Below, piece by piece: positions 21,710 through 42,494 of a DNA stretch of 64,000 nucleotides. A program made the position numbers and the translations under genes. The notes under the pieces are model-generated. The model did not search any database. It was given only the letters and a program-made list of their open reading frames with translations, and was not told the origin of the DNA. Source of the DNA: Spirochaetia bacterium (lineage in GTDB: Bacteria > Spirochaetota > Spirochaetia > SP-2023); NCBI GenBank assembly GCA_965263295.1, contig OZ253665.1:2304001-2368000 (forward strand). Reading direction: 5' to 3'. How positions within the stretch are numbered: position 1 is the stretch's first letter; the number at the start of each line of letters is the position of its first letter.

Positions 21710-22777
21710 ATGCTAAAAATTGCCTTTGTCGGTTGTGGCCGCATCTCCAGCAAGCACTTTGACGCCCTGGACAAACTGCGGCAAGAAATTGAGGTCCAGG
21801 CCCTCTGTGACATTGATATTGAACGCGCCCGCGGCGCGCGCAGCGCGCGCGAATGCTGTCGCTCCGCCAAGATATACAACGATATCGAATCCATGCTGGC
21901 CGCCGAGAATGGCCTGGATGCCGCCGTCATAGCGCTGCCCAACGGCTTGCATGCCGCAGCTGGAGCGCTGTGCGCCCATGCCGGCCTGCACGTCATCGTG
22001 GAAAAACCGCTGGCCGTGCGCCTGGCCGACGGCGAAAAACTGCTGGCCGCCTGTCGCCAAAATCAAGTGCAGCTTTTCCTGATCCACCAAAACCGCTTCA
22101 ACCCGCCCGTGCAGCAGCTCTACTGCGCCATCGGCAGCGGGTATCTGGGCCGCATTTACAGCCTGCATGCCAACGTATTTTGGACCCGCCCCCAGAGCTA
22201 CTACGACAGCGAGGGGAGCTGGCACGGCAGCAAGGAGCTGGACGGCGGAGCCTTTTACACCCAGGCCAGCCATTATGTCGACATGGTGCAATGGCTGGCG
22301 GGAGGCCGGCCCGATCGCATCTGGAGCCAGTTGCGCACGATGGCCCGCGACATTGAAACCGAAGACTGCGGAATGGCCTTTATGGAATGGGGCACGGCTG
22401 GCAGTCCCCAAAATATCATCGCCAGCATCAATATGAGCATCTTGACCTACCCCAGGAACCTGGAAGGCTCGGTTTTAGTGCTGGGCGAAAAAGGCAGTGT
22501 CAAAATTGGCGGCACCGCCATGAATAAAGTCGAGAACTGGCAGGTGGCGGGCATGGATGCCGCGCGGCTCGAATTCGGCAGCTACGACACCGATTCCGTC
22601 TACGGCTTCGGCCATCAAAACCTTTACGCCGCCATCGCCGCCCGGCTGCGCGGCGAGAGTCAGGACGCCGGCACTGAAGCAGCTCTGGTCAATGGCCCCG
22701 ATATTCTGGACAACCTGGCCATAATTGAAGGCATTCAGCGCTCCGCTCAAGGGGGCGGCCGCATCATTAATCTGTAA
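21710..22777 (+). CDS. Gfo/Idh/MocA oxidoreductase, WlbA/WbpB-like UDP-sugar 3-dehydrogenase
   Basis: VGCGRISSKH, EKPLA, QNRFNP, WTRPQSYY, DGGAFYTQASHYVD, YPRNLEGS, SVYGFGH. Confidence 0.82.
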   Translation: MLKIAFVGCGRISSKHFDALDKLRQEIEVQALCDIDIERARGARSARECCRSAKIYNDIESMLAAENGLDAAVIALPNGLHAAAGALCAHAGLHVIVEKPLAVRLADGEKLLAACRQNQVQLFLIHQNRFNPPVQQLYCAIGSGYLGRIYSLHANVFWTRPQSYYDSEGSWHGSKELDGGAFYTQASHYVDMVQWLAGGRPDRIWSQLRTMARDIETEDCGMAFMEWGTAGSPQNIIASINMSILTYPRNLEGSVLVLGEKGSVKIGGTAMNKVENWQVAGMDAARLEFGSYDTDSVYGFGHQNLYAAIAARLRGESQDAGTEAALVNGPDILDNLAIIEGIQRSAQGGGRIINL

Positions 22778-28346: not shown

Positions 28347-28781
28347 TTAATTTCGGTCATTATTTCGCTGCAATTGTTTTTCCATGCCCTCAATGCGCCG
28401 GCTGACGGTATTTAGGCGTTGTTCAATGGAATGCAGAACCCAGAAATTAAAGTGGCTCATGCGGCTCAGGCTGCTAATGAGCATAATTATTTTCACGCTT
28501 ATCAGCAGGATTCCAAACTCGACCGCATAAATGGGGTCAAATAATTCAAATACAATATCGACTACGAACACAGCGATTATAACGAACAAAATCAGGACGT
28601 TAATGACTCGTTCCTTCTTGCGGCTCTGCACACCCCCTATCTTGGCCAGTATGTCATCCATAGCCCCTTGTTCTTTCTGGTAAGAATCAATTTCTTCCTG
28701 CAGAATTTTTTCGGCATCGGGCTCGGCGGCTGTACTCTCAGGGGCGTCTGTGCTGACGGGACTGCGGGGGGAGGCGTTCAT
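28347..28781 (-). CDS. Hypothetical two-TM membrane protein with coiled-coil ends
   Basis: 144 aa ORF, two hydrophobic helices, RBS-like AGGAG upstream. Confidence 0.7.
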   Translation of the reverse strand: MNASPRSPVSTDAPESTAAEPDAEKILQEEIDSYQKEQGAMDDILAKIGGVQSRKKERVINVLILFVIIAVFVVDIVFELFDPIYAVEFGILLISVKIIMLISSLSRMSHFNFWVLHSIEQRLNTVSRRIEGMEKQLQRNNDRN

Positions 28782-28917: not shown

Positions 28918-30360
28918 CTAGCTCATCCAGTCGACTTTATTTTCGGCGTTCCACTTGGTGCTAATCTTGCGGTGGATGGTCCACAACGGCAATGACTCTG
29001 GGCCGGTAATGTCAGCCGTGCCAAAACGCGAGGCTTTAATGCCGCCAAAGGCAAATGGGTCGCGCGGTACCGGCACGCCGACATTTAGCCCCAACATGCC
29101 GGCTTCCAATTGCCGTAGCAGTTCTGCCGCGCTGCGACCATTCTGGGTGAAAATGGCGGCGGCGTTGCCGTAGGGAGAACGTCGCTGGAGTTCCGCGGCT
29201 TCGTGGATGTTCTTTGCTCCGATGATTTCCAAAGTCGGGCCAAAGATTTCTTCGCTGGGCATCTGGGCGCCGGTTCCCCGATAATCAATAATTGATGTGC
29301 CCATGTAGTAGCCTTGTTCAGGTTTGTCTGCCTTGCGCCCATCTACAACGACATTTGCCCCCGCAGAGCTCACTTTGTCTAGGTAAGCTCCAATCCTGGC
29401 CACCGCCGTCTGCGAGATTAACGGCGGCAAGTCCTTGCCGGCCAGTTGGTTTTGCGCCGCTGCAATCAGCATATCTATGTGCTTGTGCGTATCGCCCACA
29501 GCGAGCAAGACGGAAGCCGCCATACAGCGTTGGCCACCCATGCCCGTCGCCGAGGCTAAAATGTCGCGCACCACCATGTCGGGATCGGCATCGGGCAACA
29601 GAACGATGTGGTTCTTGGCGCCGCCAAAGCTGGCTACGCGCTTGAGGTTTTGCGCGCAGCGTCGGTAGACCACTTCAGCCACGGGAGTCGAACCGACAAA
29701 AGACACGGCGGCAATGCCCGGATGATCGCAAATGCCTTCGACAATGTCTTTGGCCCCGTTGATTACTTGTAGCAAGCCATCGGGCAAGCCGGCCTTTTGC
29801 AAAAGTTCCGCGGCTTTTAGCGCACACAGCGGCGTCATTTCAGAGGGCTTGAGTATCATGGCATTACCCAAGACCAGAACTAAAGGCATTGTCCAGTGCG
29901 GCACCATGAGCGGAAAGTTAAACGGCGCTATCGAGCTGCATACGCCCACGGGGACAAACTCATCGCGGCATTCGACACCGCGGCTGACCATCTGGATGCG
30001 GCCCGTAAGCCAATTTGGCGTGGACGCGGCAAACTCTGCCAGTTCAAGTGCGCGGTCGACGCCGGCCTGGGCTTCCGCCATGGACTTTCCGTTTTCCTTG
30101 TGGCATAGCGCTGCCAGTTCGTCGCGCTGCTGTTGCAAGAGCGCGCGATAATTATACATCACTTGAGCGCGACTCTTGAGGGTGTGGCCGCTCCAGTCTT
30201 CCTGGGCTTTTGCCGCGCTCCTCACCGCGGCATTGAGCTGTTGCTTGCTGGCCAGCCTCATGTTGCCCAATATGCGGCCATCCAAAGGGCTGTCGACAGG
30301 TATTAGTGCCGCCTCGCCGGGGACGTAGGCCCCATTCATCCAGTTGCAGATTTCTTCCAT
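28918..30360 (-). CDS. iolA: CoA-acylating malonate/methylmalonate-semialdehyde dehydrogenase
   Basis: PFNFPLMVP, LKPSE, SFVGSTPVA, GGAKNH, GQRCMA, EEIFGP, NVGVPVP; inositol cluster context. Confidence 0.92.
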   Translation of the reverse strand: MEEICNWMNGAYVPGEAALIPVDSPLDGRILGNMRLASKQQLNAAVRSAAKAQEDWSGHTLKSRAQVMYNYRALLQQQRDELAALCHKENGKSMAEAQAGVDRALELAEFAASTPNWLTGRIQMVSRGVECRDEFVPVGVCSSIAPFNFPLMVPHWTMPLVLVLGNAMILKPSEMTPLCALKAAELLQKAGLPDGLLQVINGAKDIVEGICDHPGIAAVSFVGSTPVAEVVYRRCAQNLKRVASFGGAKNHIVLLPDADPDMVVRDILASATGMGGQRCMAASVLLAVGDTHKHIDMLIAAAQNQLAGKDLPPLISQTAVARIGAYLDKVSSAGANVVVDGRKADKPEQGYYMGTSIIDYRGTGAQMPSEEIFGPTLEIIGAKNIHEAAELQRRSPYGNAAAIFTQNGRSAAELLRQLEAGMLGLNVGVPVPRDPFAFGGIKASRFGTADITGPESLPLWTIHRKISTKWNAENKVDWMS

Positions 30361-30371
30361 GCTGTAAGCTC

Positions 30372-31157
30372 CTATTTGTCTGGCCAGATGACTGCGCTTT
30401 TTTCATTTAGCCAATTGTGCTGCGGGTTGATTGTGCGCTCACGCCAGGGGTCACCGGGGAGGTGGCGGATCATCCAGCAAAAATACATGGCGTAGCCAGG
30501 AGCTGAGGTTTGCGGGTGATCCTGGCCCCCCGCTATCAAGGCCGCACTGCGGTCGCGGATGGCATATGCCCGTTCGCCGATGTGGATTGAACCAAAGCCC
30601 TGCGGGTAGTTAAAGCGGTAGTAATAAATTTCTGGCTGGCGATGCGAGTGCGGGGGGTAGCTGGACCAGCGGCCCGGATGGTTAATGACTTCGCCGAGTA
30701 CCATCTGGGAATATGGCGCCGTGTCGTAGTCAAAGATGGTACAAACCGAACGGACCGCGCTGTCGTGCCATTGTCCGGCGCCAAAGACCTCTACTTTGAT
30801 GTCTTGGGGGCGGTAGTAGCGGGCCGGAAATTCCTTGGGGTTTGTGGCTTGCTGTAAGATTACCTCACTTGGCTCGTCCAGACTTTCGAGCCGTACTTCC
30901 TGTCCTTTGGAGACGTGCAGGCAGCAGGGGGCGTGATCAAAGCAATTGGGGCGCAGGATTTCTTCTGTCCGTCCTTGCCACTGCAGGCGCAGGTGGCCTT
31001 CGATCAGTAATATCGCTGACTCGCGCTGGATATCGCGCAGCACAAAACTGTCTCCCGCGCGCAGGCGCAGGAGGGAAAAGTTTTGGCGCATGCCACTGGC
31101 GTCAGATTCTTGCGTGTAAGTATTTAGTCCATCATTTATGCGGGGTTGGATGAGCAT
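30372..31157 (-). CDS. iolB: 5-deoxy-glucuronate isomerase
   Basis: LGEV..HPGRWSSYPPHSH.QPEIYYYRF, GFG, HPQTSAPGYAMY. Confidence 0.92.
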   Translation of the reverse strand: MLIQPRINDGLNTYTQESDASGMRQNFSLLRLRAGDSFVLRDIQRESAILLIEGHLRLQWQGRTEEILRPNCFDHAPCCLHVSKGQEVRLESLDEPSEVILQQATNPKEFPARYYRPQDIKVEVFGAGQWHDSAVRSVCTIFDYDTAPYSQMVLGEVINHPGRWSSYPPHSHRQPEIYYYRFNYPQGFGSIHIGERAYAIRDRSAALIAGGQDHPQTSAPGYAMYFCWMIRHLPGDPWRERTINPQHNWLNEKSAVIWPDK

Positions 31158-31177
31158 GATTTATCCTTTATCGCCGG

Positions 31178-32257
31178 CTATGCGTCGGGGTCCGAGATCA
31201 TAAAGTCGCGCACAAGGGAAAGCAGCTTGCTGTAGTCGGCGATAAAGGTGCGCAGGGTTCGCCTTGTGGCGCCAAAGTCGTCGAATTCCTCTGCGTTCAT
31301 GCCGCCGGGCTCGTAGGCGCGCACAAAGTCTGGGTATAAATCCTGCAGCTCGCGCACAATCGCGGGTTCCACAGCTTTACTCATGCGTTCTTCCACCCGG
31401 ACTTTTGACTGGTTGAAACGTTGTTGCCACTTGTGGGGAATGGTCAGGACAATATCGCCGCCAATGAATTCGCTCCAGTGGTAGTGATTGCGATAGGCCG
31501 CCGCCAGTAGGCGACAGCGGTAGCCGCGTTCCCGATAGATGCCATAGGCCCGCTTCATGGCCGCTACGCCCGCCCATTCAAGGATCTCAGGATTGGGAAC
31601 CAAACCTTGCCTGTCGGTGACGATTTTTAACCAGTCGTCCAGTCGTCCCACCATAATGGTGCAGACTGGAGTTAAATGGTCGTTCTCCTTGCCTTCAGAC
31701 TCCCGGCGTCTCAAGCCGCGTTCCACGGCTTCGGCCACGGCTAGCGCCTGTGCCACGGTAAAGCATACTGTGGCATTAATATTAACGCCTCGGTAAGTCG
31801 ACTCTTCTATCGCCGTGATCCCAGCCTGGGTCGCGGGTATTTTAACCATGATATTTGCCGCCAGCGTATCAAAATGTAGGGCCTGCTCGGTCAGTAATTT
31901 GGCCGAGCGATAGTATTGGCCGTTCGTTTGTATGCTAATACGACCTTTTTTTCCCCTTGTCGCCGCGAAAATCGGTTGCAGCAGGCTGCCGCCGGCCACA
32001 GCCATTTCTTCGTTTAATTTCCAGGCAATGTCTACCTCTGTGGCTGCGGGAGACTCGGCAATCCATGCAAGGATGCGGTCTTTCCAGAGCAATAACTCTT
32101 TTTTTAACACTCCGGTCACAATACTGGGGTTACTTGTCGCTCCGCTGGCTCCATGTTCAATAGCATAACGCAGCTCTTCTTGCGAACAGCTATCGTTCCA
32201 TAGATCCGTGGCGCTCGTAGTTACGGTTTCGTGCAATGGACTTTTGTAATTTGACAT
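31178..32257 (-). CDS. Transaldolase-family protein with a non-canonical active site
   Basis: WND, GATSNPSI, Schiff-base MVKIPAT, GVNINATVCF, MVGRLDD, AAAYRN. Confidence 0.88.
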   Translation of the reverse strand: MSNYKSPLHETVTTSATDLWNDSCSQEELRYAIEHGASGATSNPSIVTGVLKKELLLWKDRILAWIAESPAATEVDIAWKLNEEMAVAGGSLLQPIFAATRGKKGRISIQTNGQYYRSAKLLTEQALHFDTLAANIMVKIPATQAGITAIEESTYRGVNINATVCFTVAQALAVAEAVERGLRRRESEGKENDHLTPVCTIMVGRLDDWLKIVTDRQGLVPNPEILEWAGVAAMKRAYGIYRERGYRCRLLAAAYRNHYHWSEFIGGDIVLTIPHKWQQRFNQSKVRVEERMSKAVEPAIVRELQDLYPDFVRAYEPGGMNAEEFDDFGATRRTLRTFIADYSKLLSLVRDFMISDPDA

Positions 32258-32321
32258 ATTGTTTTCTCCTGTTCAGAGCATTCTAAATTTCACTCATTTT
32301 TGAACTCCATATTTATCAGAC

Positions 32322-32350
32322 ATATTATTGCAAAAATTTCAAGTTGTCAA
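32322..32350 (-). promoter_or_regulatory. Sigma70-type promoter for the transaldolase-iolB-iolA unit
   Basis: Minus strand TTGACA-17 nt-TAATAT about 65 nt upstream of the ATG. Confidence 0.65.
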
Positions 32351-32450
32351 GGTAAAGTTTAGAAGCTTTTGTCTATAAATAGGATACGTTACGCCAACAT
32401 CTAGGTTCAGGGCTATTGGGAACAACGTTTATCTTACATTAAGGCGTTTG

Positions 32451-32478
32451 GCGTTAAAATCGGCGCTGATTTTAACGC
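32451..32478 (-). terminator. Hairpin immediately after the second inositol dehydrogenase stop codon
   Basis: 11 bp perfect stem GCGTTAAAATC / GATTTTAACGC; no clear U-tract. Confidence 0.55.
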
Positions 32479-33500
32479 TAAAGTTCAGATAGCCAGACGC
32501 TGCGTTTTTCTTTCATGGAGCGAGTACAAGCTTCGGCAATTCTAGTCGCCTGTATCCCATCCTGATAGCGTATCGGAGAATTGCGCTTTTCGTTGATGCA
32601 GCTAATAAACTCGCGTACTTCCCGGCGAAACGCTTCGGCAAAACGGTCAAAAAATGTGTAGACACATTCCCCGCGCTGACCATGGGCGTCAAGGATTTCT
32701 ACATCGCAGCAGGTCGGCCGAAAACCGATGCGCAAAATACCTTTGCTGCCATAAATTTCTGCGCAGGTATTGTGGCCATGCGCGGCATTGCGGTTGGCTT
32801 GCAGGATTCCCATTTTACCGCCCTCAAACTCACAGCTGACTACGGCATTGTCCGCGTCGCCAATCTGGCCAAATTCCGGGAAAACCAGACTACTGCCCCG
32901 CGCGTGGACGCTCAATGCTTCGGAACCGAGGTACCAGCGCATCAGGTCGATATCGTGGACACTCATATCGTGGAAAATCCCGCCGGACGTGGCTGTGAAG
33001 GCTAACTGAAAAGGAGCGGAGTCGCTGTGGTCCGAGGTTTGTGAACGCACCATGTAGGGCGCACCGATCAAACCTTGCTCAATTTTTTTCTTGGCATAGC
33101 CATAGGCGGGGTCAAAACGACGCACGAAGCCCAACATGAAAATCTGTTTCTCTTGATATTCGGCAATGACTCTGGCCGTTTTCTCGCAGTCTGCGATTGA
33201 GGTCCCCAGGGGTTTTTCGCAGAATACATGCTTGCCGGCCTGCAGGGCTAAGATGATCTGCTCGCCGTGAACATTGCTGGAACTGGCCAGAAATACGGCG
33301 GAGAAATCCTGCTTCTCTAACATTTCGGTATAATTGTGCCAGAGTTGGCCCCCTTTGAGCTGCAAGTGCCCTTTCGCCCATTCGAGTTCTGCCGGCACCA
33401 CGCTGCAGGCCGCGACAATCTGGCAACCAGGTGTTTGCAGCAGATTTTCCGCGTGACTTTTGCCCATTCGTCCCAGGCCGACTATGGCCAATTTAACCAT
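32478..33500 (-). CDS. Gfo/Idh/MocA inositol-type dehydrogenase (second paralogue)
   Basis: GLGRMG, HVFCEKP, GFVRRFD, SGGIFHDMSVHDID, FFDRFAEAF. Confidence 0.85.
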   Translation of the reverse strand: MVKLAIVGLGRMGKSHAENLLQTPGCQIVAACSVVPAELEWAKGHLQLKGGQLWHNYTEMLEKQDFSAVFLASSSNVHGEQIILALQAGKHVFCEKPLGTSIADCEKTARVIAEYQEKQIFMLGFVRRFDPAYGYAKKKIEQGLIGAPYMVRSQTSDHSDSAPFQLAFTATSGGIFHDMSVHDIDLMRWYLGSEALSVHARGSSLVFPEFGQIGDADNAVVSCEFEGGKMGILQANRNAAHGHNTCAEIYGSKGILRIGFRPTCCDVEILDAHGQRGECVYTFFDRFAEAFRREVREFISCINEKRNSPIRYQDGIQATRIAEACTRSMKEKRSVWLSEL

Positions 33501-33574
33501 GCTATGTCTCCTATAAATTTTGTTTTGGGCCCGTTCCAGATTTTGCCACTGAGGGGCTGGCAGTTTGAGCGCGG

Positions 33575-34477
33575 CTAGAACCCACAGAGTTGGCGTATGT
33601 ATTCACGGCCTTGTTTGGCGTATTCGAACGGGTTGGCGAGGGCCGGGTCCTGTTCCGCCTCGACGACAATCCAACCCCGGTAGTCGGCGTTTTGCAAAAC
33701 GGCAAAAATTGTTTTAAAGTCGATATTCCCGGCATCTCCTGGCACGGTAAACAAACCTCGGCGCACGGCTTCCAGAAAACTCAAGCCCTGTTCTCGCGTC
33801 TGTCGCAGCACGGCCGGGCGCACATCCTTTAAGTGGACGTGCCCTAGGCGGCTTTGGGCGTTTTGCAGCAGGGCCAGGACATCGGCCTGGGCCGCGCAAG
33901 CGTGCCCCGAATCAAACAGGGCGGACACGTAGTCCGGGTGGGTCGCGTCCAGGTAGCGAGCGAATTCCTCTTGACTTTCGACGCAGGTTCCCAGGTGGTA
34001 GTGGAAACAAAAACGAATGCCGTACTCTTCGCGGGCAATTTTACCCAATTCATTTGAGCCCTGGCACAACTGTTTCCAAGCCGCGGCATCCAGCCGGGGG
34101 CGCTGTGCGCCAAACACCGGCACGTCTCGCCCTTGTATGCTCCCTGTCTGCTCCGAGGCGCCAATGACTCTGGCTCCCATCTCGCGCAGGAAGGCGGCCT
34201 GGCGATGTAGCAGCTGGATATTCTCCCGCAAGCTACGGCTCGTTAAAAACATGCTGAACCACTGGTTGCAGATGCGCAAGCCGCGTATTTCAAGCATCTT
34301 TCGCAGTTTCGCCGGCTGGTCGACGGGGTATTTGTTGCCGACTTCACAGCCGGCATAGCCCGCCAGGGCCATTTCTGAAATACACTGTTCGAATGGAATC
34401 TCGCCACCCAGGTCCGGCAGGTCGTCGTTGGACCAGTTGATTGGTGCGATGCCGAAAAATACGTTGTCTTTGTCCAT
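33575..34477 (-). CDS. iolE: myo-inosose-2 (2-keto-myo-inositol) dehydratase
   Basis: GIAPINWSNDD, EMALAGYAGCEVGNKYP, HVHLKD, FTVPGD, VEAEQDP. Confidence 0.95.
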   Translation of the reverse strand: MDKDNVFFGIAPINWSNDDLPDLGGEIPFEQCISEMALAGYAGCEVGNKYPVDQPAKLRKMLEIRGLRICNQWFSMFLTSRSLRENIQLLHRQAAFLREMGARVIGASEQTGSIQGRDVPVFGAQRPRLDAAAWKQLCQGSNELGKIAREEYGIRFCFHYHLGTCVESQEEFARYLDATHPDYVSALFDSGHACAAQADVLALLQNAQSRLGHVHLKDVRPAVLRQTREQGLSFLEAVRRGLFTVPGDAGNIDFKTIFAVLQNADYRGWIVVEAEQDPALANPFEYAKQGREYIRQLCGF

Positions 34478-34539
34478 TTGCGCCTCTCTTTGGCATGCTG
34501 TAAAAATTGGGCCGCTTGCAAGTCAAGTGCAAGGCCAGC

Positions 34540-36462
34540 TCAATATTGCCGGGCTTCGCGGCGGTGCTGCTCCATGTCGCGGCAGGCTGCCGCCACCTTG
34601 GGATTGCGCGAAACTTCGGGCGTGCCGGCGTTCCACCAGGTCTCGTAACCATCCGTCATCGATTTGACCACACACTTGGCGACTATAACAGCTGTCTGTG
34701 GGCTGGATCTCGCTCGGACAATGGCTCTCCGCAGTTCTTCCTCGTTGCTGGCATTCAGGCCCAAACAACCGTAGCTCTGGGCATTGAGTGCAAAATCCAC
34801 CGGCAAATAAGGGCCGTCGAGTTCGCCACTCGCGCTGCGGAATCGGCGCTCACAGCCAAAGCGGCGAATGCCTTGTGAGGTTTGTAAGTTGTCGATGCAC
34901 TGCCAGCCGCCGTTGTCGAACAGCATGACGTTAATTTTTATGCCTTCGGCGACTGCCGTGAGCAACTCCTGATGATACATCAAATAAGTTCCATCGCCGA
35001 TCAAGACCCAGACTTCCCGTTGTGCTTCGGCCTGCTCTACGGCCAGGCGAGCCCCGATGCCGCCGGGAATTTCATAACCCATGCACGAATATGCGTATTC
35101 CAGGTGGTAGCCGCCCGCGACCTCGCAGCGCCAGAGGCGCTCCAGGTCTGAAGGCAGGCTGCCGCCAGAACAGATCGCGATGGCATCTTTGGGCAGAAGC
35201 TCTTGCATAACGCCAAGTACTTGTGATTGCATGAGTTGACCCAAGGCGTTGTCACTGCCCGCGTCGCTGCTGAATTCGTCCCGCAATGCGCCCGTGTAGT
35301 GCAAGCCGTAAAGGCGCTCGACTTCGCTGTCCCACTCGGCCTTGACGGCGGCGATGGCTTGGTGGTCGCTGCGGTAGCCCTGGAGTAACGGCCTGAGCTC
35401 GGCGAGGGCCAGTTTTGCGTCTGCCAGTACCGGTAGGGCGTCCAGTTTGTACGCGTCCATGGCGTTGACGTTGATGCCAATTACCTGCAGTTCGGGGCAG
35501 CGAAAAGCCCACTTCGAGGCGGTGTGGAAGTCGTTGAGCCGGGTTCCCACGGCGATCAGGCAGTCGATATCTTTTGCGATGCGGTTGGCTGCCAGGGTGC
35601 CAGTGGTGCCGACCGCCCCAAGGTTTAGGGGGTGATTCCAGGGCACTTGCCCCTTGCCGGCCTGGGTCTCCATAATGGGAATCTGGCACTGCTCCGCCAG
35701 GGCGATGACTTCGCTGGTGGCAAAAGAATAGCGCACGCCGCCACCGATAAGCAGGGCCGGACGGCTCTTGCCGCGTATCTTGGCGGCGATCAGGCTGGCC
35801 ATGCCCGGATTCCCGCTGCAGGGCGGGGACAATGGACGTCGCTGGATTTCGTGAACGCGTTTCTGGAAAAAATGTTCTGGGTAGTTCCAGGCTTCGGCCG
35901 CCACGTCCTGTGGCAGCGACAAGGTCACCGCCCCGGTCTGGGCCGGGTCGCTGAGGATGCGCACGGCGTGGATACAGGCCGTCATTAGCTGTTGCGGACG
36001 GCTAATGCGGTCCCAGTACTTACTGACGGCGCGGAAGGCATCGTTGGATGAAATGGAATGATCGTGTTCCTGCTCGACTTGTTGCAGTACCGGATCGGGC
36101 TGGCGGTTGGCAAAGATGTCGCCGGGCAAGAACAGCACGGGGATGCGATTGGCGGTGGCTGTCGCCGCCGCCGTGACCATATTCATGGCCCCGGGGCCCA
36201 CGGAGCTGATACAGGCCATAATTTGCCGGCGCTCATTCTGCTTGGCAAAGCCAATGGCCATGTGACCGCCGCCCTGCTCGTTTTGTACGCGGTAAAATTT
36301 TAAATTGTTTTCACACTCGGCCAGAGCCTCGCCGATGCCCAATACGCAGCCGTGTCCAAAGATTCCAGCCACGCCGTGGACAAACTTGTATTCCCGGCCG
36401 TCCAGACGCAAATATTGCACGTCGAGAAAGCGGATCAAGGCTTGCGCTGTCGTCAGTTTCAT
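34540..36462 (-). CDS. iolD: 3D-(3,5/4)-trihydroxycyclohexane-1,2-dione acylhydrolase (ThDP-dependent)
   Basis: LTTAQALIRFL, GIFGHG, ANRIPVLFLPGD, PDPVLQQ, YHLEYAYSCMGYEI, GDGTYLM; ATG 36462 behind AGGAG. Confidence 0.96.
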   Translation of the reverse strand: MKLTTAQALIRFLDVQYLRLDGREYKFVHGVAGIFGHGCVLGIGEALAECENNLKFYRVQNEQGGGHMAIGFAKQNERRQIMACISSVGPGAMNMVTAAATATANRIPVLFLPGDIFANRQPDPVLQQVEQEHDHSISSNDAFRAVSKYWDRISRPQQLMTACIHAVRILSDPAQTGAVTLSLPQDVAAEAWNYPEHFFQKRVHEIQRRPLSPPCSGNPGMASLIAAKIRGKSRPALLIGGGVRYSFATSEVIALAEQCQIPIMETQAGKGQVPWNHPLNLGAVGTTGTLAANRIAKDIDCLIAVGTRLNDFHTASKWAFRCPELQVIGINVNAMDAYKLDALPVLADAKLALAELRPLLQGYRSDHQAIAAVKAEWDSEVERLYGLHYTGALRDEFSSDAGSDNALGQLMQSQVLGVMQELLPKDAIAICSGGSLPSDLERLWRCEVAGGYHLEYAYSCMGYEIPGGIGARLAVEQAEAQREVWVLIGDGTYLMYHQELLTAVAEGIKINVMLFDNGGWQCIDNLQTSQGIRRFGCERRFRSASGELDGPYLPVDFALNAQSYGCLGLNASNEEELRRAIVRARSSPQTAVIVAKCVVKSMTDGYETWWNAGTPEVSRNPKVAAACRDMEQHRREARQY

Positions 36463-36586
36463 GTTGACTCCTTTCACTATCTTTTTGTTGTCTACCAGCT
36501 ATCAAACGTATGACGTTTCGGCCCCTGAGGTACAAAATCAAATCCCGTAAATTAACTCTCTTGATTCACTTTTTTCGCAGTGATGA

Positions 36587-37594
36587 TCACAAGCGGACCA
36601 GCGAACCGCCGTTTGCCAGCGACTCTTTGGCTGCCAGCCCCAGCTCCGTGGCGCGCAGGCCATCTACGCCAGAGACTTCCACCGCGCTGTCCTCGCGCAA
36701 GGCGCGAACAAAGGATTGCAGCTCGGAGGTGTAGGCCGCCTGGTAACGTTCGAGGAAAAATGGCAAGGGCGTGTCACCTTCACTGCCATCTGCGCTGAAA
36801 TGTCGTACGTTGTGGGAATAATCGTTGTCGCACAAGGACATTCCCTTGGAGCCAAAGACTTCAATGCGCTGGTCGTAGCCGTACGCGGCCTGGCGTGAGT
36901 TGTCGATCGCGCCCAAGGCCCCGTTGCGAAATTGCAGGGTCACTAGGGCGGTGTCGATATCCCCGGCCCGGCCGATCTCAGGGGCGAGCAGGCAAGTCCC
37001 CAAAGCCTGCAATGCGGTCACTTCGCCAAACTGAAACCGGGCCATGTCGAAGTCGTGGATCATCATGTCGAGAAACAGTCCGCCTGAGACTTTGATGTAG
37101 TCAATTGGCGGCGGTGACGGGTCGCGCGAGGTGATTCTCAAAAGCTGCGGTTCGCCAATTTTCTTTGAAGTCACAGCATGGCGGAGCTGGGCGAAGTTGT
37201 GATCAAAGCGGCGGTTAAAGCCAATTTGCAGTTTGACCCCCGCATTTTCTACCGCTCTCAGTGTCTCCCCGATGCGTGCCGTGTCGAAGTCGATTGGCTT
37301 TTCGCAGAAGATGTGCTTGCCCGCGGCTGCGGCTTGCTGGATGTATTGCGCGTGCGTATCTGTCGAAGAGCAGATGAGCACGGCATCAATCGTAGGGTCT
37401 TCGATAATTTTGCGGGCTTCCAGGTGTGTGGCGACGGCACTGGCTCCGCGCGCCTGCAAGCAGTCCCGATCTTTTAGAAACGGGTCGCTAATTGCCGTCA
37501 GTTGAACTCCTTCTAATTTGTGCAAGAGGCATTGGGCATGCACCCGGCCGATGCGCCCAAAACCGATGATGCCGAATTTCAATATTTTACTCAT
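36587..37594 (-). CDS. iolG: myo-inositol 2-dehydrogenase
   Basis: GFGRIG, CSSTDTH, FCEKP, GFNRRFD, ITSRDP, SGGLFLDMMIHDFD, YGYDQRIE, FFLERY. Confidence 0.93.
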   Translation of the reverse strand: MSKILKFGIIGFGRIGRVHAQCLLHKLEGVQLTAISDPFLKDRDCLQARGASAVATHLEARKIIEDPTIDAVLICSSTDTHAQYIQQAAAAGKHIFCEKPIDFDTARIGETLRAVENAGVKLQIGFNRRFDHNFAQLRHAVTSKKIGEPQLLRITSRDPSPPPIDYIKVSGGLFLDMMIHDFDMARFQFGEVTALQALGTCLLAPEIGRAGDIDTALVTLQFRNGALGAIDNSRQAAYGYDQRIEVFGSKGMSLCDNDYSHNVRHFSADGSEGDTPLPFFLERYQAAYTSELQSFVRALREDSAVEVSGVDGLRATELGLAAKESLANGGSLVRL

Positions 37595-37753
37595 ATTTCA
37601 AAATTTCCTTAAAAAAATTCACTTTTCCAACATTCATTGGGGTGTGGATAATTCTTGTGTCATTATGCCGAGGCCATTGCCTCAAGCGGCTCCGGGTCAG
37701 CTCATTGTAAACTTCTGGGCCCTTTCTATACATTGGTACGGGATAACTTGAAA

Positions 37754-38716
37754 TCAATCCTTCTGGTTGCGCCTGAGCTGGTCGAGAAACACGGCCAATA
37801 CTATGATAAGGCCTTTGACGATTTGCTGCCAGTAGGGGTCGACACCGAGGAGGTTTAGGCCATTGTTAATGACGCCTACGATGATTGCTCCCAGAATGCA
37901 CAAGGCCACTGATCCTTTGCCGCCGCTCAAAGAGGTCCCACCTATGACTGTGGAGGCGATGGCATCCAGTTCATACATTACTCCATACGTCGGATTGGCA
38001 GCCATAGTGGTGGAAACTAGAATATTACCACTGATACCCGCAGCGATACCGGCAAACATATAAGTCAGAACCAAACACTTTTCCACGCGGACACCACAGA
38101 TGCGCGCGGCGTTTTCATTGCCGCCAATGGCGATGATATGGCGTCCATAACGCATTTTGTCAAGAAGAATAAAGGCGATAAGGGCAAAAGCCAGGTAAAC
38201 GTAGACGACGCCGGGAATGCCCAGGACAGAATTAATGCCTAACCAGGTCATTGAGGAGGGGAGTTCACCGACGGGCCGCCCATTGGAAACCACGGCAGCC
38301 ATGCCGCGTGCGGCCGTCATCATGCCCAGGCTTACGATAAATGGTGGAATCTTGCCGTAAGCGACGATTGAGCCATTGATTAAACCACATAGCAGACCGA
38401 CCAGAACCGCGACTAGAATACCGAGGAGCCCCATGGCCGTCCCGTGACCGCTGGCGACTTGGGCGCCGACAATGCCTGAAAGGGCAATGACCGATCCGAG
38501 CGAAAGATCAATGCCACCCGTGATGATGACAAAGGTTACCCCAATTGCGATAATGCCAATGGGGGTGACCTGTTCCAAGATATTGAGCAGATTCTGCAAG
38601 CGAAAAAAACGACCGCCAGACATTGCTCCCATGAACAAGACGAGTAGAAGCAAAATAACCAACATTCCAAATTTATTAAAAAAATTGCTGCGCAAGATTT
38701 TTAAGACAGAGTTCAT
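37754..38716 (-). CDS. Inositol/sugar ABC permease (CUT2)
   Basis: [37 protein letters not shown]. Confidence 0.92.
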
Positions 38717-38750
38717 TATTTTTTACACCTCTCTTTTTAAAGAACGAGAT

Positions 38751-40289
38751 TCAGCATCTATTTTTTAAGACATCGCGCACGCGCTCGCCAGTCGCCATGC
38801 GCAACACACTTTCCTGGCTGGCATAGGCGCGAGGTAATGCCCCAGAGGACTTGCCGTCGTGCAAGACTAGAATCCGGTCACTCATTGAAAGGAGTTCCAG
38901 CATGTCGGAAGAAACCATAATGATCGACTTCCCCTCGCTAACGAGTTCTTCCATGATGCTATAGATTTCATGTTTGGCCCCGACATCAATGCCTTTGGTC
39001 GGCTCGTCCATAATCAAAATGGCGGGGTCGAGGAGTAACCAGCGGGCAATCAGGGCTTTTTGCTGGTTGCCGCCGGACAGATTGTTCATTATTGTGCCCA
39101 AATTCGGAGTTTTTATGCGTAGAGATTTACAAAATTTGGTGGCTTGGCGTTTTATCTCGCGAAAATTTAACAAGTGACTGCCTTTCTTTATAAACTTATT
39201 TAAATCTGGCAGTGCAATATTGTCGCTTACACTCATATTGAGAAAACAGCCGGTGAGTTTGCGATCTTCGGTAATAATGCCTATACCGGCTTGTATGGCT
39301 TCAATCGGATTCTGGAACGGGGCTCGTTCCTTGCCATTAATCGTAATTGTGCCTTGGTCTGCCGGCACATAGCCAAATATGGCTTCCATGACTTCGCTGC
39401 GGCCCGCTCCCATTAAACCGGCGACACCTAAAATTTCACCCTTGCGCAACTGGAAGCTGATATCATTAAATCTGTCCTTGCGGCAAAGGTTCTTGACTTG
39501 AAAGGTCACTTCTTTTTGTGGTTCCGTGGTCTTGTTAAAGAAATCTTTGACTTCTCGCCCGACCATCATGCGTATCATTTCCTCTTTTGTGATGTTTGCG
39601 ACGTCGCGCGTACCCACGACTTCGCCATCGCGAAACACAGTGACTTCGTCGGCAATGTTAAAAATCTCATCGAGCTTGTGAGAAATATATATAAAAGAGA
39701 CACCACGTTTATTTACTGTTTTTACAATGCGATACAAGCGCTCGACCTCGGCTTCGGTCAGTGCCGTGGTCGGTTCGTCCAGGATGATCAGTTTGGCGTT
39801 GTAAGTCACAGCTGTCGCGAGGGAGAGCAACTGGGCCTGTGCCACTGAGACTTCACTCATGTTGACAGCGGCATTTTCGGCCATTTCGGGAATGCCTAGT
39901 TCTTGGAGTATGCGCCGGGTTGTCAAGCGCATGTTTTTCTTGTCGAGAAAAATACCGTGACTCAAAAACTCGCGGCCCAAGTACAAGTTTGCGGTCATGG
40001 TAATGTTGGGCACCGGGCTGACTTCCTGCGGAACAATTGCCACGCCGCGTTTTAGTGCGTCTAAAGGACTTTGCGGTCGGTAGGCCCGGCCATCCAGGAG
40101 CATGGTGCCACCGGGATCCGGGTTGTAGATACCGTACAGAGTCTTGACTAGTGTCGATTTTCCGGCCCCATTTTCCCCCATCAGGGCATGAACTGAACCT
40201 TTCTTCACTGTGAAGTCGATATTTTGTAAGGCCAATACGCCGGGGAAAGTCTTGGAGACATTTTTTATTTCAAGAACATTGTCAGACAT
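38751..40289 (-). CDS. Inositol/sugar ABC ATPase (two NBDs)
   Basis: [35 protein letters not shown]; start placed at MSDNVL. Confidence 0.93.
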
Positions 40290-40386
40290 ATTGTTTCTCT
40301 TTGTCACAAGGACGAACAGCCAAATGAGCTTCGGTCCAGGGCGATCGCGGGCCGGCAACTTTGCTTTGAGGTCAGATATGCAAAGA

Positions 40387-40428
40387 GGGGCAATCGGAGA
40401 GTCGGGACTCCAGTTCGCCGATTGCTCC
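40387..40428 (-). promoter_or_regulatory. Hairpin between binding-protein and ATPase genes
   Basis: GGGGCAATCGG ... CCGATTGCTCC with inner GAGTC/GACTC. Confidence 0.5.
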
Positions 40429-40467
40429 AAATTTTATCTAATTTTACCCAAGCTTCTCTAGGCGCTA

Positions 40468-41430
40468 TTAATCCTGTTTATAGTCGGAAGCATTTTCCTC
40501 GGTAACTAGCTCAAATGGAACCCAAATCCTCGCTTCTGCCTTCTCGCCTTTGGCCCATTTGTAAGCGGCTTCGGCCGCGCCGCGGCCTTGGGCCACCGCA
40601 TTTTGAAAGACCGAAAAGTCCAGACCTTGACCCAAATATTCTAAGGCATCTGGCGTTGCGTCGATACCGCCAATGATTATGTCATCATCACCCTTTCCCG
40701 CTTTCTGTGCGGCCAAAACAGCGCCAATAGCCATTTCGTCATTGTTGGCCAAAATTACGTTCATATCTGGATGAGCCTGAAACCAGTCCTGGGCTACAGC
40801 GAGTCCCTTGGCGCGATCCCATTGGCCTGTCTGTTGGGCAATTATTGTCAAGTTGGGATATTTTTGGTTGATGGTTTCTTCAATGCCTTTAGTTCGGCCA
40901 ATTTGCGCCGCCTGTCCGATTGGTCCCATCAGAATGCCAATTTTTCCCGCGGCTCCACCGAGCAACTCGGCCGTTTGATCGGCCTGGATGATACCGGCAT
41001 CTTCTTCGCGAGAACCGACATAGGTATTCACATATTGCATGCTTTCATCCGTGCCCAGACGATTTGCCAGGACCAGTGGAATTCCGGCTTTTTGGGTCTT
41101 CTGTCCGATGACCAGTACGATGTCCGGGTCGGTAGGGATTAATAATAAAGCATTGACGCCCTCTACAATAAAGTTGTCTACGTCGTTGAGTTGGCGTTTG
41201 GGATCAAGGTTGGCATCCGTCAGCTTAAAGATGACATCTGAATGTTCGGCGTCAAAGGCGCGAATCGCATCGTATAAATATGTCTGCCATTTATCCGCAA
41301 AAGAATGGGTTGGAACTCCAATGATATATTGACTCCCTCCCGCGTCGCCCGCCGCGCTTAAATTCGTGCTGGCAGTGATTCCAATTAATATTGCCAGCAA
41401 AATCCCTGACAACTTTGATTTTTTGTTCAT
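40468..41430 (-). CDS. Inositol/sugar ABC substrate-binding protein
   Basis: Signal peptide, YVGS, WDRAKG, ANNDEMAIGA, GGIDATPDAL, VFQNA, WVPFELVT; RBS GGAGG. Confidence 0.9.
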   Translation of the reverse strand: MNKKSKLSGILLAILIGITASTNLSAAGDAGGSQYIIGVPTHSFADKWQTYLYDAIRAFDAEHSDVIFKLTDANLDPKRQLNDVDNFIVEGVNALLLIPTDPDIVLVIGQKTQKAGIPLVLANRLGTDESMQYVNTYVGSREEDAGIIQADQTAELLGGAAGKIGILMGPIGQAAQIGRTKGIEETINQKYPNLTIIAQQTGQWDRAKGLAVAQDWFQAHPDMNVILANNDEMAIGAVLAAQKAGKGDDDIIIGGIDATPDALEYLGQGLDFSVFQNAVAQGRGAAEAAYKWAKGEKAEARIWVPFELVTEENASDYKQD

Positions 41431-41523
41431 ATCAACCTCCACATGAACTCCAGATGAGCCATTAATAAAGCTTACCAACGTATAAAACTATCATTGAGCT
41501 GGTACAAATGTCTTATATTTAAG

Positions 41524-41552
41524 ATTAAAACACGAAATATTTCGATTGTCAA
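41524..41552 (-). promoter_or_regulatory. Sigma70-type promoter of the inositol uptake operon
   Basis: Minus strand TTGACA-17 nt-TTTAAT. Confidence 0.65.
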
Positions 41553-41750
41553 ATACTTTTTTGAAATTTTACTATTAATTTACTGAAAATAATTTATTAT
41601 TATACTTCACCCTTGCTTAAGAGATATTCATCGGACTTAAAGGGCAAATTTGCAATAATCTTATCTCAAATAGAAATTGAACTGTTAGTATGTTAAATTG
41701 CAGATACAATTATTGCTATATTAAATACTGGGTAAAGATAGCTACAAATA

Positions 41751-42494
41751 ATGAAAAATCGGGCAGACAAACGCAATGTAACCCTGGCTGAACAGGTCTT
41801 GAATCAGATAATTCGCCGCCTGGCGGCTCAGGCGTTACCTCTGGGAAGTAAATTACCTACAGAAAAAGAGATATCAGAAGAGCTCAACGTCGGGCGTTCG
41901 AGTGTCCGCGAGGCAATTAAGACTTTGAATGCTCTGGGCTTAGTGCGCTCAACTGCCGGCTCAGGTTCTTACCTGGAGCAGACCAATGTATATGGTAAAC
42001 TGGCTTTATTTGCTTCTTTATTAAACGGGCAGGATCGCCAGGAGATGATTGATCTCAGGGCGAGTATTGAGCTCTATGCTCTGCTGCAATTTCACAGGGA
42101 TTTACATCGCGATCACAGCACGTTTTCCCAAGAATATATTCAGAATATAGAGAAAACTCTGGGGGAATTGACCCAGACCGTGAAATCCATGTTTGAGTCG
42201 GCGTCAAAAGCTGATTTTGCGGCCTTGGAACGAGAAGATTTTCAGTTTCACCAGTGTATTTTGTATTACCCGCAGAATGGCTTGATTATAGACTTGTTCC
42301 ACAATTTGGAGCAATTTATGCATGAGGAGATCAAGGAATCTTACTATAAAGTTCCAGCCAAAGAAGTTGCACGTAATCACCAGAGTTTGTTGGAGGCCAT
42401 TAAAAATCCCAATCTGGGCGACTTGATTCGCAATTTTGAGTTTCACATGAATGACACGAAGAATAAAGTTATGCGCGCCAGTCATAATCATTAG
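41751..42494 (+). CDS. GntR/FadR-family transcriptional regulator, divergent from the iol operon
   Basis: wHTH KLPTEKEISEELNVGRSSVREAIKTL; FCD domain with DFQFH. Confidence 0.93.
   Translation: MKNRADKRNVTLAEQVLNQIIRRLAAQALPLGSKLPTEKEISEELNVGRSSVREAIKTLNALGLVRSTAGSGSYLEQTNVYGKLALFASLLNGQDRQEMIDLRASIELYALLQFHRDLHRDHSTFSQEYIQNIEKTLGELTQTVKSMFESASKADFAALEREDFQFHQCILYYPQNGLIIDLFHNLEQFMHEEIKESYYKVPAKEVARNHQSLLEAIKNPNLGDLIRNFEFHMNDTKNKVMRASHNH

Follow-up and report, generated by a model that had tools for sequence, protein, structure and literature searches.

A transaldolase-family gene in place of IolC and IolJ in inositol catabolic clusters: a recurrent genomic feature with a predicted sulfo-TAL-like chemistry

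Introduction

The catabolism of myo-inositol is a textbook pathway that is used to predict how bacteria of the soil and the gut, as well as pathogens, adapt to their niches. In its canonical form, known from Bacillus subtilis and Salmonella, IolG, IolE, IolD, IolB, and IolA are encoded in one cluster together with a transporter and a regulator, and a dedicated kinase (IolC) and aldolase (IolJ) complete the set. A different logic is found in the sulfo-TAL pathway of sulfoquinovose (SQ) degradation, where, as its description puts it, 6-deoxy-6-sulfofructose transaldolase (SftT or SF-TAL) moves a C3 glycerone unit to glyceraldehyde-3-phosphate (GAP), giving fructose-6-phosphate (F6P) (PMC7491151). 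Here, we analyze a 64-kb stretch of the genome of a Spirochaetia bacterium, which we call the window. Its inositol (iol) cluster, at positions 28918-42494, has neither IolC nor IolJ and includes a gene of the transaldolase/fructose-6-phosphate aldolase (TAL/FSA) superfamily, encoding a protein of 359 amino acids (aa) named P0001. An original prediction, made from the letters of this cluster, held that this protein cleaves the product of IolB without a kinase. Our results, which come from comparative genomics alone, support this interpretation: a transaldolase-type shortcut resembling sulfo-TAL is predicted to lie within the textbook inositol pathway.

Other solutions for the middle of this pathway have been proposed. 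The DUF2090 domain, found in the IolC-DUF2090 proteins of Proteobacteria, was put forward from fitness data as an alternative aldolase for the 6-phosphate of 5-dehydro-2-deoxy-D-gluconate (DKG) during the gap-filling of GapMind (PMC9007349). The part of that work devoted to this gap arrives at DUF2090 and not at a TAL-like enzyme (PMC9007349). A survey published in 2022 defines iol clusters by iolB, iolC, iolD, and iolE, and its definition leaves a TAL-like enzyme unmentioned (PMC9430895). A paper on Dysosmobacter proposes class II aldolases for the role of IolJ, and its passages on this step mention no transaldolase (PMC13311982). Our full-text search of the literature, whose coverage leaves most subscription journals outside, returned no report joining a transaldolase to the iol pathway.

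Results

No IolC or IolJ in the cluster or elsewhere in the genome

All genes of the cluster lie on the minus strand, except for a divergent regulator gene of the GntR/FCD family on the plus strand (Table 1). The open reading frames (ORFs) and the profile matches agree with the content that had been described from the sequence: a transporter, a regulator, iolG, iolE, iolD, iolB, iolA, and the gene of the TAL family. That list was correct in all its entries and omitted one gene, a second iolG paralogue (iolG2). IolG, IolE, and IolD each exceed the cut-off of their own equivalog profile. The TAL gene, iolB, and iolA form a tight unit, in which iolB starts 20 bp past the TAL stop codon and iolA 11 bp past that of iolB. 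This unit is preceded by a gap of 220 bp, which separates it from iolG2 and contains a promoter-like site of its own. The window thus resembles the canonical system in grouping IolG, IolE, IolD, IolB, and IolA with a transporter and a regulator, but it has no IolC, IolJ, or DUF2090, its regulator belongs to the GntR/FCD family, and its IolB is short and divergent.

Could the missing functions be encoded elsewhere? The genome is a single contig of 2,407,850 bp, 92.6% complete by marker genes and with 0.08% contamination. The best genome-wide score against the IolC profile (TIGR04382) is 99 bits, for a cut-off of 300, and belongs to a gene that we identify by its context as a 2-keto-3-deoxygluconate (KDG) kinase, since it adjoins eda, tagaturonate reductase (uxaB), and a dehydratase. 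The genome has three PfkB genes: this kinase, a ribokinase located in an rbsDACB-K operon, and ThiD, located in a thiamine cluster. Its sole class II aldolase (PF01116) is of the FbaA type (514 bits, cut-off 297) and lies far from the iol cluster, amid housekeeping genes, and DUF2090 (PF09863) has no match genome-wide. When the genome was searched by tblastn with the IolC of related bacteria, only the KDG kinase was found (24.6% identity, E value of 3e-7), and nothing was found with their IolJ at E <= 1e-3. Hence, the genome holds no remnants of the two genes. An alternative aldolase of the DeoC/LacD type was also considered and rejected, the single DeoC-family gene of the genome being far from the cluster. 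The genome therefore encodes every iol step but those of IolC and IolJ. The absence of the two genes, which the original prediction had stated for the cluster, thus extends to the whole genome by profile, gene context, and tblastn alike.

A proposed end for the pathway

How would inositol degradation be completed in such a genome? Imported myo-inositol would be converted by IolG, IolE, IolD, and the short-type IolB to DKG. Read from its keto end, DKG is a ketose of the 5-deoxy-hexuronate type whose C1 hydroxyl is free (HOCH2-CO-CHOH-CHOH-CH2-COO-). We propose that the TAL-family enzyme forms a Schiff base between Lys139 and this unphosphorylated ketose and cleaves its C3-C4 bond. The cleavage would free malonate semialdehyde (OHC-CH2-COO-) and leave the dihydroxyacetone (DHA) unit on the lysine. 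The adjacent IolA would turn malonate semialdehyde into acetyl-CoA and CO2, and the bound DHA unit would most likely pass to GAP, yielding F6P as in sulfo-TAL. One enzyme would thereby cover the work of IolC and IolJ and make a dedicated kinase dispensable. The route would remove both the dedicated kinase and the dedicated aldolase, and it would save ATP overall only if F6P were phosphorylated with pyrophosphate. Substrate, bond cleaved, stereochemistry, and acceptor are all points that we infer. In the case of stereochemistry, DKG should have the D-threo configuration required by transaldolases because IolJ, a member of the fructose-bisphosphate aldolase family, yields dihydroxyacetone phosphate from the phosphorylated form. 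By the same argument, its C1-C4 configuration would match that of F6P, as the original prediction held. We give this reading, the cleavage of unphosphorylated DKG to malonate semialdehyde with transfer of the C3 unit to GAP, an even chance of being correct.

The family is linked to inositol genes in many phyla

Relatives of P0001 are abundant. A sequence search scored 8000 candidates, all significant, of which the best 120 are 61-81% identical to P0001 and carry at most the names "transaldolase" or "transaldolase family protein." A search among 1.84 billion cluster representatives retrieved 317 at E <= 1e-30, 1423 at E <= 1e-10, and 3873 at E <= 1e-3. We examined 80 related loci from Spirochaetota, Bacillota, Bacteroidota, Chloroflexota, Planctomycetota, Deinococcota, Actinomycetota, and Omnitrophota, and counted gene families in them by tblastn. 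IolB of either type was found in 33 of the loci, IolD and IolG in 30 each, and IolE and IolA in 26 each. IolC and a half-length IolJ were found in one locus only, the same in both cases (L012), and KdgK and FbaA in none of the 80. All five iol families were present in 12 loci, four in 12, three in 4, and none in 32; among the loci with complete flanks of 10 kb, at least three families were present in 20 of 37. The genes directly beside the TAL gene (gap below 400 bp) in 79 loci are most often IolB (17), followed by IolD (10), IolA (9), an acylating aldehyde dehydrogenase (5), and IolE (5), and one or more of these adjoin it in 36 loci. In such loci, the TAL gene is flanked by the predicted maker of its proposed substrate and the predicted users of its proposed product. 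In Bacteroidota and Chloroflexota, the clusters have the gene order TAL-IolB-IolD-IolA-IolE-IolG, the canonical set with TAL in the place of IolC and IolJ, and the best IolC-like score in these genomes is 100-124 bits. No kinase recurs in the TAL clusters of the related loci. The linkage to iol genes, which the original prediction expected to see in homologues, therefore recurs in many phyla.

Is this linkage the property of a single lineage? We rejected the monophyly of the iol-linked copies, since the label is scattered through all major clades of a tree of 64 sequences. It requires 13 changes on this tree, compared with a mean of 17.6 after shuffling, and 6 of 500 shuffles were as low. This scatter ties the linkage to the family as a whole rather than to a single branch. 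The protein of the window is the sister of the copy of L012, with a support of 100. Two members of the family are apparent fusions: P0131 (655 aa) joins a xylose-isomerase-like TIM barrel (AP_endonuc_2) to TAL, and P0139 (566 aa) joins TAL to a KduI/IolB domain. If real, they could provide Rosetta-stone support for the link between TAL and IolB; alternatively, they could be run-throughs of gene calling.

Not all copies lie in iol clusters. Among 48 genomes with a TAL copy that is not iol-linked, IolD was found elsewhere in 28 (over the cut-off in 22) and was not found in 20, one of which is the complete chromosome of 5.15 Mb that carries L022, so the family is not purely dedicated to iol. The other contexts are diverse. 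In three spirochaete loci (L025, around 7645-12000; L029, 6749-9722; L030, 6299-12567), the neighbors are an acylating aldehyde dehydrogenase (PduP/SauS-like) and an mmdA-like carboxyltransferase, with the addition in L030 of the beta subunit of a Na+-translocating decarboxylase and a biotin carrier. This module looks like an energy-conserving route from malonate semialdehyde to malonyl-CoA and acetyl-CoA that would replace IolA. Its recurrence next to TAL, as a second set of genes able to consume the predicted product, speaks for the proposed cleavage of DKG. The genes around TAL in L088 (5294-16266) include an aldehyde:ferredoxin oxidoreductase, Zn-dehydrogenases of the IolM kind, a gene resembling sulfolactate dehydrogenase, and an HpaI/GarL-type aldolase, along with an IolO-like epimerase (254 bits, cut-off 300) and an IolN-like hydrolase (176 bits, cut-off 245). 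These genes hint at a Thermotoga-type oxidative inositol route with a TAL-like enzyme attached, whose substrates might be keto-uronates. The TAL loci L011 and L022 contain paired short-chain dehydrogenases/reductases (SDRs).

The contexts of L088, L011, and L022 raise the possibility that the enzyme acts on a different keto-sugar acid (fructuronate, tagaturonate, or 5-keto-gluconate, for example), reached through iolG2 from other inositol isomers or by a Thermotoga-type route. The DKG branch of this genome would then be a dead end, or it would be completed by a promiscuous KdgK together with FbaA; housekeeping class II aldolases have been proposed in place of IolJ for Dysosmobacter, in the part of that study concerned with this step (PMC13311982). 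The fraction of non-linked genomes without IolD (20 of 48), the SDRs resembling gluconate 5-dehydrogenase, the IolM-, IolN-, and IolO-like genes and the aldehyde:ferredoxin oxidoreductases of the other contexts, and the position of iolG2 as the upstream neighbor of TAL, both here and in L012, all agree with such a substrate. In L012, L094, L095, and L101, orthologues of iolG2 are found next to TAL or to the IolC block, and this dehydrogenase may act on another inositol isomer. Yet the commonest direct neighbor of TAL is IolB, the maker of DKG, and IolA follows iolB in the tight unit, where malonate semialdehyde is expected only from DKG. The Bacteroidota and Chloroflexota clusters, canonical sets minus IolC and IolJ plus TAL, in genomes whose IolC-like kinases do not exceed 124 bits, speak against it as well. 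We find such an alternative substrate quite unlikely for the enzyme of the window.

Complementarity with IolC and a series of losses in spirochaetes

The original prediction also expected TAL and IolC to be anticorrelated. In 31 genomes with an iol-linked TAL locus, IolC exceeds the cut-off in 9, and a tenth genome (G001, the genome of L012) has a copy in the cluster at 282 bits; about two thirds thus have no IolC. We compared these genomes with two control samples. The first comprised 201 genomes of the phylum of the window, with IolD in 9 including its own genome. None of the other 8 carries a member of the clade, and all 8 have a match to IolC: 6 over the cut-off, one of 277 bits, and one split into two fragments at contig ends. 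The second comprised 401 genomes of the phylum of another TAL-bearing genome (G015), with IolD in 12 including G015; the other 11 have no member of the clade, the single hit being 28% identical with a score of 75 bits, and IolC exceeds the cut-off in all 11. Both samples combined, IolC-like matches occur in 19 of 19 IolD-positive genomes lacking the clade, 17 of them over the cut-off. The genomes compared are related and not independent, and we attach no P value to this anticorrelation. The predicted trend is thus present (IolC over the cut-off in 9 of 31 genomes against matches in 19 of 19), but it is not absolute, as IolC coexists with the enzyme in some genomes. Judged from the related loci and the two control samples, the association of TAL with iol genes is more than chance.

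The cases of coexistence are of two kinds. Four Clostridia (G008, G010, G016, and G031) have a separate canonical iolC-iolJ-iolB-iolD module and, in addition, a TAL cluster that includes its own copies of iolG, iolD, and iolE and its own transporter. Several spirochaetes (G014, G024/G025, and G026) retain iolC-iolB and a xylose-isomerase-like TIM gene. This block lies in or next to the TAL cluster in G024/G025 and G026, and on a different contig in G014. In G024, G025, and G026, IolC scores 304-334 bits, and the one class II aldolase of each genome has the size of FbaA and lies away from the cluster. The closest relative of the window, L012, with 74% identity, is arranged as iolG1-iolD-iolE-iolC-iolB-X-iolG2-TAL-iolA, where X is an ORF of 339 aa (L012:7856-8875) between iolC-iolB and iolG2-TAL-iolA. 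This ORF is a chimera that joins positions 1-142 of the 277 of PF01116 to positions 66-231 of the 249 of AP_endonuc_2 (xylose-isomerase-like), and its structure suggests that IolJ was destroyed by an in-frame deletion. In the window, the entire iolC-iolB-X block is missing, and a short iolB stands between TAL and iolA instead. The stages could be ordered from an intact canonical module to a half-deleted IolJ, to IolC without IolJ, and to neither, as in the window. Taken together, this spirochaete series fits a progressive loss of IolJ and then of IolC once a TAL-like enzyme is present.

The same series may be seen in the light of another reaction. The enzyme could be a class I aldolase for DKG-6-phosphate that replaces only IolJ, the kinase being IolC where it is present and, in the genome of the window, the KDG kinase or another promiscuous kinase. 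The persistence of IolC in or next to the TAL clusters of G024-G026, with only an FbaA-like class II aldolase in these genomes, is what one would expect in this case, and so is the intact IolC of L012 beside its truncated, chimeric IolJ. In the genome of the window, the nearest relative of IolC is the KDG kinase, with about 100 bits. On the other hand, 21 of the 31 genomes with TAL and iol genes, and the genome of the window, have no IolC, and no kinase recurs in the clusters. A ketose 1-phosphate is not known as a substrate of any enzyme of the TAL/FSA family. The active site adds to these objections, with the conservation of N161 and T200 at the positions of Asn154 and Ser176 of TalB, which bind the free C1 hydroxyl. 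All in all, we regard an aldolase for DKG-6-phosphate as very unlikely.

P0001 has the fold of transaldolases and an active site of its own

The match of P0001 to the TAL/FSA family profile (PF00923, cut-off 27 bits) covers residues 19-297, but the protein is below every NCBIfam cut-off for TAL and FSA: 107.7 vs 367 for NF002881, the best, 76.6 vs 233.75 for TIGR00876, 61.8 vs 396.2 for TIGR00874, and 36.9 vs 245.95 for TIGR00875 (FSA). The genome carries three PF00923 genes, namely P0001, a short FSA-like gene, and a canonical TalB-like gene (300 bits) with the motifs STEVD, IKMAAT, CNLT, ISPFVGR, and GASFRN. As this canonical gene coexists elsewhere in the genome, P0001 is not the housekeeping transaldolase. 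An AlphaFold (AF2) model of P0001 built from 36 sequences (pLDDT of 96.0, pTM of 0.93) has the alpha/beta barrel fold of transaldolases. The Foldseek search with this model gave TM scores of 0.82 to 7oey and 3clm (Neisseria gonorrhoeae transaldolase), 0.81 to 3r5e (Corynebacterium glutamicum), and 0.69 to TalB, and the identity to long-type transaldolases is about 21-22%. The profile of the family matched 3r5e at 7e-36, SF-TAL (8bc3) at 1e-18, and FSA structures at about 1e-12.

To compare the residues of the active site, we aligned 182 members of the family to the TalB-like protein encoded in the same genome. Eight positions are invariant in all 182: D22, N43, Q110, K139, T163, M202, R205, and R256. 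Six of them correspond in TalB to Asp17 (D22), Asn35 (N43), the Schiff-base Lys132 (K139), Thr156 (T163), Arg181 (R205), and Arg228 (R256), and K139, D22, N43, and T163 align to the K, D, N, and T of the genome's own TalB-like protein. HMMER alignments to transaldolases of the PDB agree with this correspondence. The TalB numbering used here agrees with titles of PDB entries, which name the variants D17A, N35A, E96A/Q, T156A, S176A, F178Y, and R181E. N161 (Asn154 of TalB) is present in 179 of the 182 sequences, and T200 is conserved at the position of Ser176. These two positions presumably bind the free C1 hydroxyl of the donor, and their retention suggests that the substrate is not phosphorylated at C1. 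Arg181, Ser226, and Arg228 make up the anion (phosphate) site of TalB. Both arginines are invariant in the family, but Ser226 is replaced by Ala254 in 182 of 182. The retained pair would suit an anionic tail, either the carboxylate of DKG or the phosphate of the acceptor.

P0001 shares its fold with TalB and the long-type transaldolases (3clm, 7oey, and 3r5e), along with the Schiff-base lysine, the aspartate, the two arginines of the phosphate site, the Asn/Thr pair, and the asparagine of the TSNP motif. It differs from them in the replacement of Glu96 by Gln, of Phe178 by Met, and of Ser226 by Ala, all invariant, and in being dedicated to an iol cluster. Gln also occupies the position of Glu96 in most of 51 full-length distant representatives, down to about 30% identity. 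Could P0001 still be an ordinary transaldolase of the pentose phosphate pathway, present in the cluster by chance or balancing the pools of sugar phosphates during growth on inositol? Its PF00923 match, its fold, and the names of its relatives, annotated only as "transaldolase" or "transaldolase family protein," would agree with this. The canonical TalB-like gene elsewhere in the genome, the scores below all TAL equivalog cut-offs (at best 108 vs 367), the invariable replacement of the catalytic Glu by Gln, and the recurrence of the iol linkage across phyla make it an explanation to which we give almost no weight.

The comparison with FSA is more delicate. In FSA, the triad Gln59-Thr109-Tyr131 holds the catalytic water, Tyr131 acts as the proton shuttle, and exchanges of triad residues interconvert aldolase and transaldolase activity, as reported in the passages where PMC13259622 cites Stellmacher 2015. 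The clade has two members of this triad, Gln110 and Thr163, but the position of Tyr131 is the invariant Met202. Like the FSA of Escherichia coli, P0001 has Gln at the position of Gln59 and keeps the donor-pocket residues Lys, Thr, Asp, and Asn; unlike it, it has Met for Tyr131 and a chain of 359 aa instead of 220. The Gln of FSA without its Tyr, combined with the Asn/Thr pocket of TAL without its Glu, amounts therefore to a third arrangement. The signature of the clade, read from its residues, fits neither TAL nor FSA chemistry.

An FSA-like lyase would act on the same substrate and the same bond, and would release malonate semialdehyde and free DHA, to be phosphorylated by DhaK or GlpK. The invariant Gln110 at the position of Gln59, where transaldolases have Glu, is in line with this chemistry. 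The genome of the window encodes Dak1 (433 bits) and GlpK (736 bits) side by side, and in 5 of the 80 loci, no more than 10 kb separate GlpK from TAL. Against a lyase stand the replacement of the proton shuttle Tyr131 by an invariant Met202 and the N161/T200 pair, which is TalB-like, where FSA has Leu and Ala. In the five loci with GlpK nearby, this gene has a divergent orientation and stands behind one for cardiolipin synthase, and no DHA kinase recurs in the TAL clusters of the related loci. Moreover, in the 21 genomes with TAL and iol genes but without IolC, Dak1 was found in 12 and not in 9, one of the latter being a complete chromosome. This favors transfer over the release of free DHA. 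The active-site residues favor neither outcome, both of which the original prediction had allowed. We prefer transfer onto GAP, with its even chance, and consider the release of free DHA unlikely.

The short FSA/TalC-like paralogue of the genome deserves mention. It has 245 aa, lies in the region L093:1432-2169 and 2200-3357 (about 1945.7-1947.6 kb of the chromosome, G000:C1), and adjoins a GFO/IDH/MocA oxidoreductase. By eye, it keeps the Glu and the Phe, has the motif SPFVGW, and apparently has Trp at the position of Arg181 of TalB, in a stretch that MAFFT left unaligned. It may be another TAL or aldolase acting on non-phosphorylated sugars.

Other features of the window and the genome

The transporter of the cluster is a ribose-type ATP-binding cassette (ABC) system, for whose substrate-binding protein the gene context suggests inositol specificity. 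The GntR/FCD regulator has no NCBIfam equivalog match at or over the cut-off, and its position points to a role in the regulation of the iol genes. The 11-mer ATTATTGCAAA has exactly two copies in the window, one at 32324-32334, overlapping the -10 box of the promoter-like site that precedes TAL, and the other at 41649-41659, between the divergent genes for the substrate-binding protein and the regulator. We did not retain it as a shared operator, since, with up to one mismatch allowed, its 3 matches compare with 2.27 expected, and 39 of 100 shuffles have at least as many; found post hoc, it is a weak hint of one. No RNA family of Rfam reached the threshold between positions 27000 and 44000 of the window. 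Downstream of iolA, at 28347-28781, is an ORF of 144 aa with a charged N terminus and a hydrophobic stretch, which has no match in Pfam or NCBIfam and no homologue among the 80 related loci.

Table 1. Genes and promoter-like site of the inositol catabolic cluster, in window coordinates
Feature	Position	Strand	Evidence
GntR/FCD-family transcription regulator	41751..42494	+	PF00392 56.6 bits, PF07729 29.2 bits; divergent from the transporter genes
Sugar ABC transporter substrate-binding protein	40468..41478	-	PF13407 163.5 bits
Sugar ABC transporter ATPase, two ABC domains	38751..40430	-	PF00005 183.9 bits, two stretches
Sugar ABC transporter permease	37754..38716	-	PF02653 151.1 bits
iolG1, inositol 2-dehydrogenase	36587..37594	-	TIGR04380 437.3 bits (cut-off 355)
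iolD, thiamine diphosphate-dependent ring-opening hydrolase	34540..36477	-	TIGR04377 819.7 bits (cut-off 715)
iolE, inosose dehydratase	33575..34477	-	TIGR04379 365.2 bits (cut-off 290)
iolG2, second GFO/IDH/MocA dehydrogenase, IolG paralogue	32478..33500	-	TIGR04380 315.8 bits (below 355)
Promoter-like site	32322..32350	-	TTGACA, 17 nt, TAATAT; 10 of 12 consensus positions; in the 220-bp gap
TAL/FSA-superfamily gene, P0001, 359 aa	31178..32257	-	PF00923 144 bits
iolB, short type, 5-deoxy-glucuronate isomerase (KduI/IolB cupin)	30372..31157	-	PF04962 199 bits
iolA, CoA-acylating (methyl)malonate-semialdehyde dehydrogenase	28918..30360	-	TIGR01722 420.1 bits (cut-off 448.5); PF00171 369 bits

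Other regions of the window hold further features. A second sugar ABC transporter of the ribose type, with permease, ATPase, and substrate-binding protein, is encoded at 16644-22777, at a distance of 6 kb from the iol cluster. Beside it are a divergent GFO/IDH/MocA oxidoreductase and a Zn-dependent alcohol dehydrogenase that shares 27% identity with the IolM-like proteins found next to TAL in other loci. This region may be a further cyclitol or sugar module. Genes for a NeuA-like cytidylyltransferase, a NeuB-like synthase, and a UDP-GlcNAc 2-epimerase, of the type used in the biosynthesis of nonulosonic (sialic) acids, occupy 12774-15629, the part of the window with the lowest GC content (0.38 vs about 0.52), which may be an acquired island. 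At 47036-57851, a BamA/Omp85-like gene (894 aa) is followed by an ORF of 2695 aa whose sole match is a C-terminal TamB domain. Elsewhere in the genome, after the rbs operon (L008:9225-13765), are two leucine-rich-repeat proteins of 889 and 396 aa. They match the leucine-rich-repeat models of internalin-J and SlrP far under the cut-offs and are probably surface proteins.

Discussion

We propose that a TAL-like enzyme takes the place of IolC and IolJ at the end of the inositol pathway, cleaving unphosphorylated DKG and passing its C3 unit to GAP. Several observations weigh against this proposal. The most direct concern the active site: the acid-base Glu96 of TalB is Gln110 in 182 of 182 sequences, and Phe178, in the SPFVGR motif, is likewise always Met202, the motif reading CTIMVGR. 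With these two invariant replacements, the known proton relay of transaldolases is absent. The distribution of IolC is another concern, since IolC is found in 9 of the 31 genomes with TAL and iol genes (10 with the copy of 282 bits) and, in some spirochaetes, lies in or beside the TAL-bearing cluster itself. Where the two coexist, the enzyme might act on a phosphorylated intermediate or on another substrate; the spirochaete series equally allows action on a phosphorylated intermediate where IolC survives. The 20 genomes with a non-linked copy and no IolD, out of 48, also weigh against the proposal, as the family is not purely dedicated to iol. DhaK/Dak1 and GlpK stand side by side in the genome of the window, so the release of free DHA is feasible there. 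Finally, IolB and IolA are under their equivalog cut-offs. IolB, with 92 bits against the 205 of TIGR04378, is of a short, divergent type, and this same type (32-35% identity) is found within the canonical iolC-iolJ-iolB-iolD modules of Clostridia. IolA is just under its cut-off, and both its family and its position fit a malonate-semialdehyde dehydrogenase.

The closest parallel of the proposed route is the sulfo-TAL pathway. In both, an isomerase makes a ketose with a distal anion other than phosphate, and this ketose is, or would be, cleaved without prior phosphorylation. In both, a C3 acid-aldehyde goes to a dedicated dehydrogenase, and a pair of kinase and aldolase is bypassed. The differences are also clear. 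SF-TAL (BmSF-TAL, PDB 8bc3) is a short chain of about 226 aa, whereas P0001 is of the long type and belongs to a different subfamily, whose profile meets 8bc3 only over chain residues 58-125 (E value of 1e-18, against 7e-36 for the C. glutamicum transaldolase). The proposed substrate of P0001 has a carboxylate and is 5-deoxy, whereas that of SF-TAL has a sulfonate. No SQ isomerase or sulfolactaldehyde dehydrogenase context was seen among the profile matches of the cluster genes. The resemblance to SF-TAL is hence one of pathway logic and not of membership. With the canonical inositol pathway, the proposed route shares its end, the conversion of malonate semialdehyde to acetyl-CoA.

The variety of contexts in which the family is found invites a broader interpretation, which we advance tentatively and to which we give less than an even chance. 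Long TAL-like proteins with the Gln and Met signature could form a widespread class of carboxylate-directed transaldolases or aldolases, acting on unphosphorylated keto-sugar acids with a third acid-base arrangement and displacing IolC and IolJ. They would cleave DKG or keto-uronates, the latter to tartronate semialdehyde. In clusters of the IolD type, the cleavage of DKG to malonate semialdehyde would end the pathway, and Thermotoga-type (IolM/IolN/IolO-like) or SDR-based routes would end by the cleavage of a keto-uronate to tartronate semialdehyde.

These results may have consequences for the way in which inositol catabolism is recognized in genomes. Surveys and annotations define the pathway by iolB, iolC, iolD, and iolE, or by IolC together with IolJ or DUF2090, and may therefore under-call organisms with this variant, possibly among Spirochaetota, Bacillota, Bacteroidota, Chloroflexota, Planctomycetota, and others. 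If the proposed chemistry is correct, a textbook pathway would have a kinase-free ending carried out by a single enzyme and linking inositol carbon directly to F6P. A function would be given to a large family (317 representatives at E <= 1e-30) that is now labeled only "transaldolase family protein." The family would also show a third way in which nature has solved acid-base catalysis within the TAL/FSA fold, of interest for the engineering of aldolases, and would be the second case, after sulfo-TAL, of a transaldolase recruited to non-phosphorylated anionic sugars.

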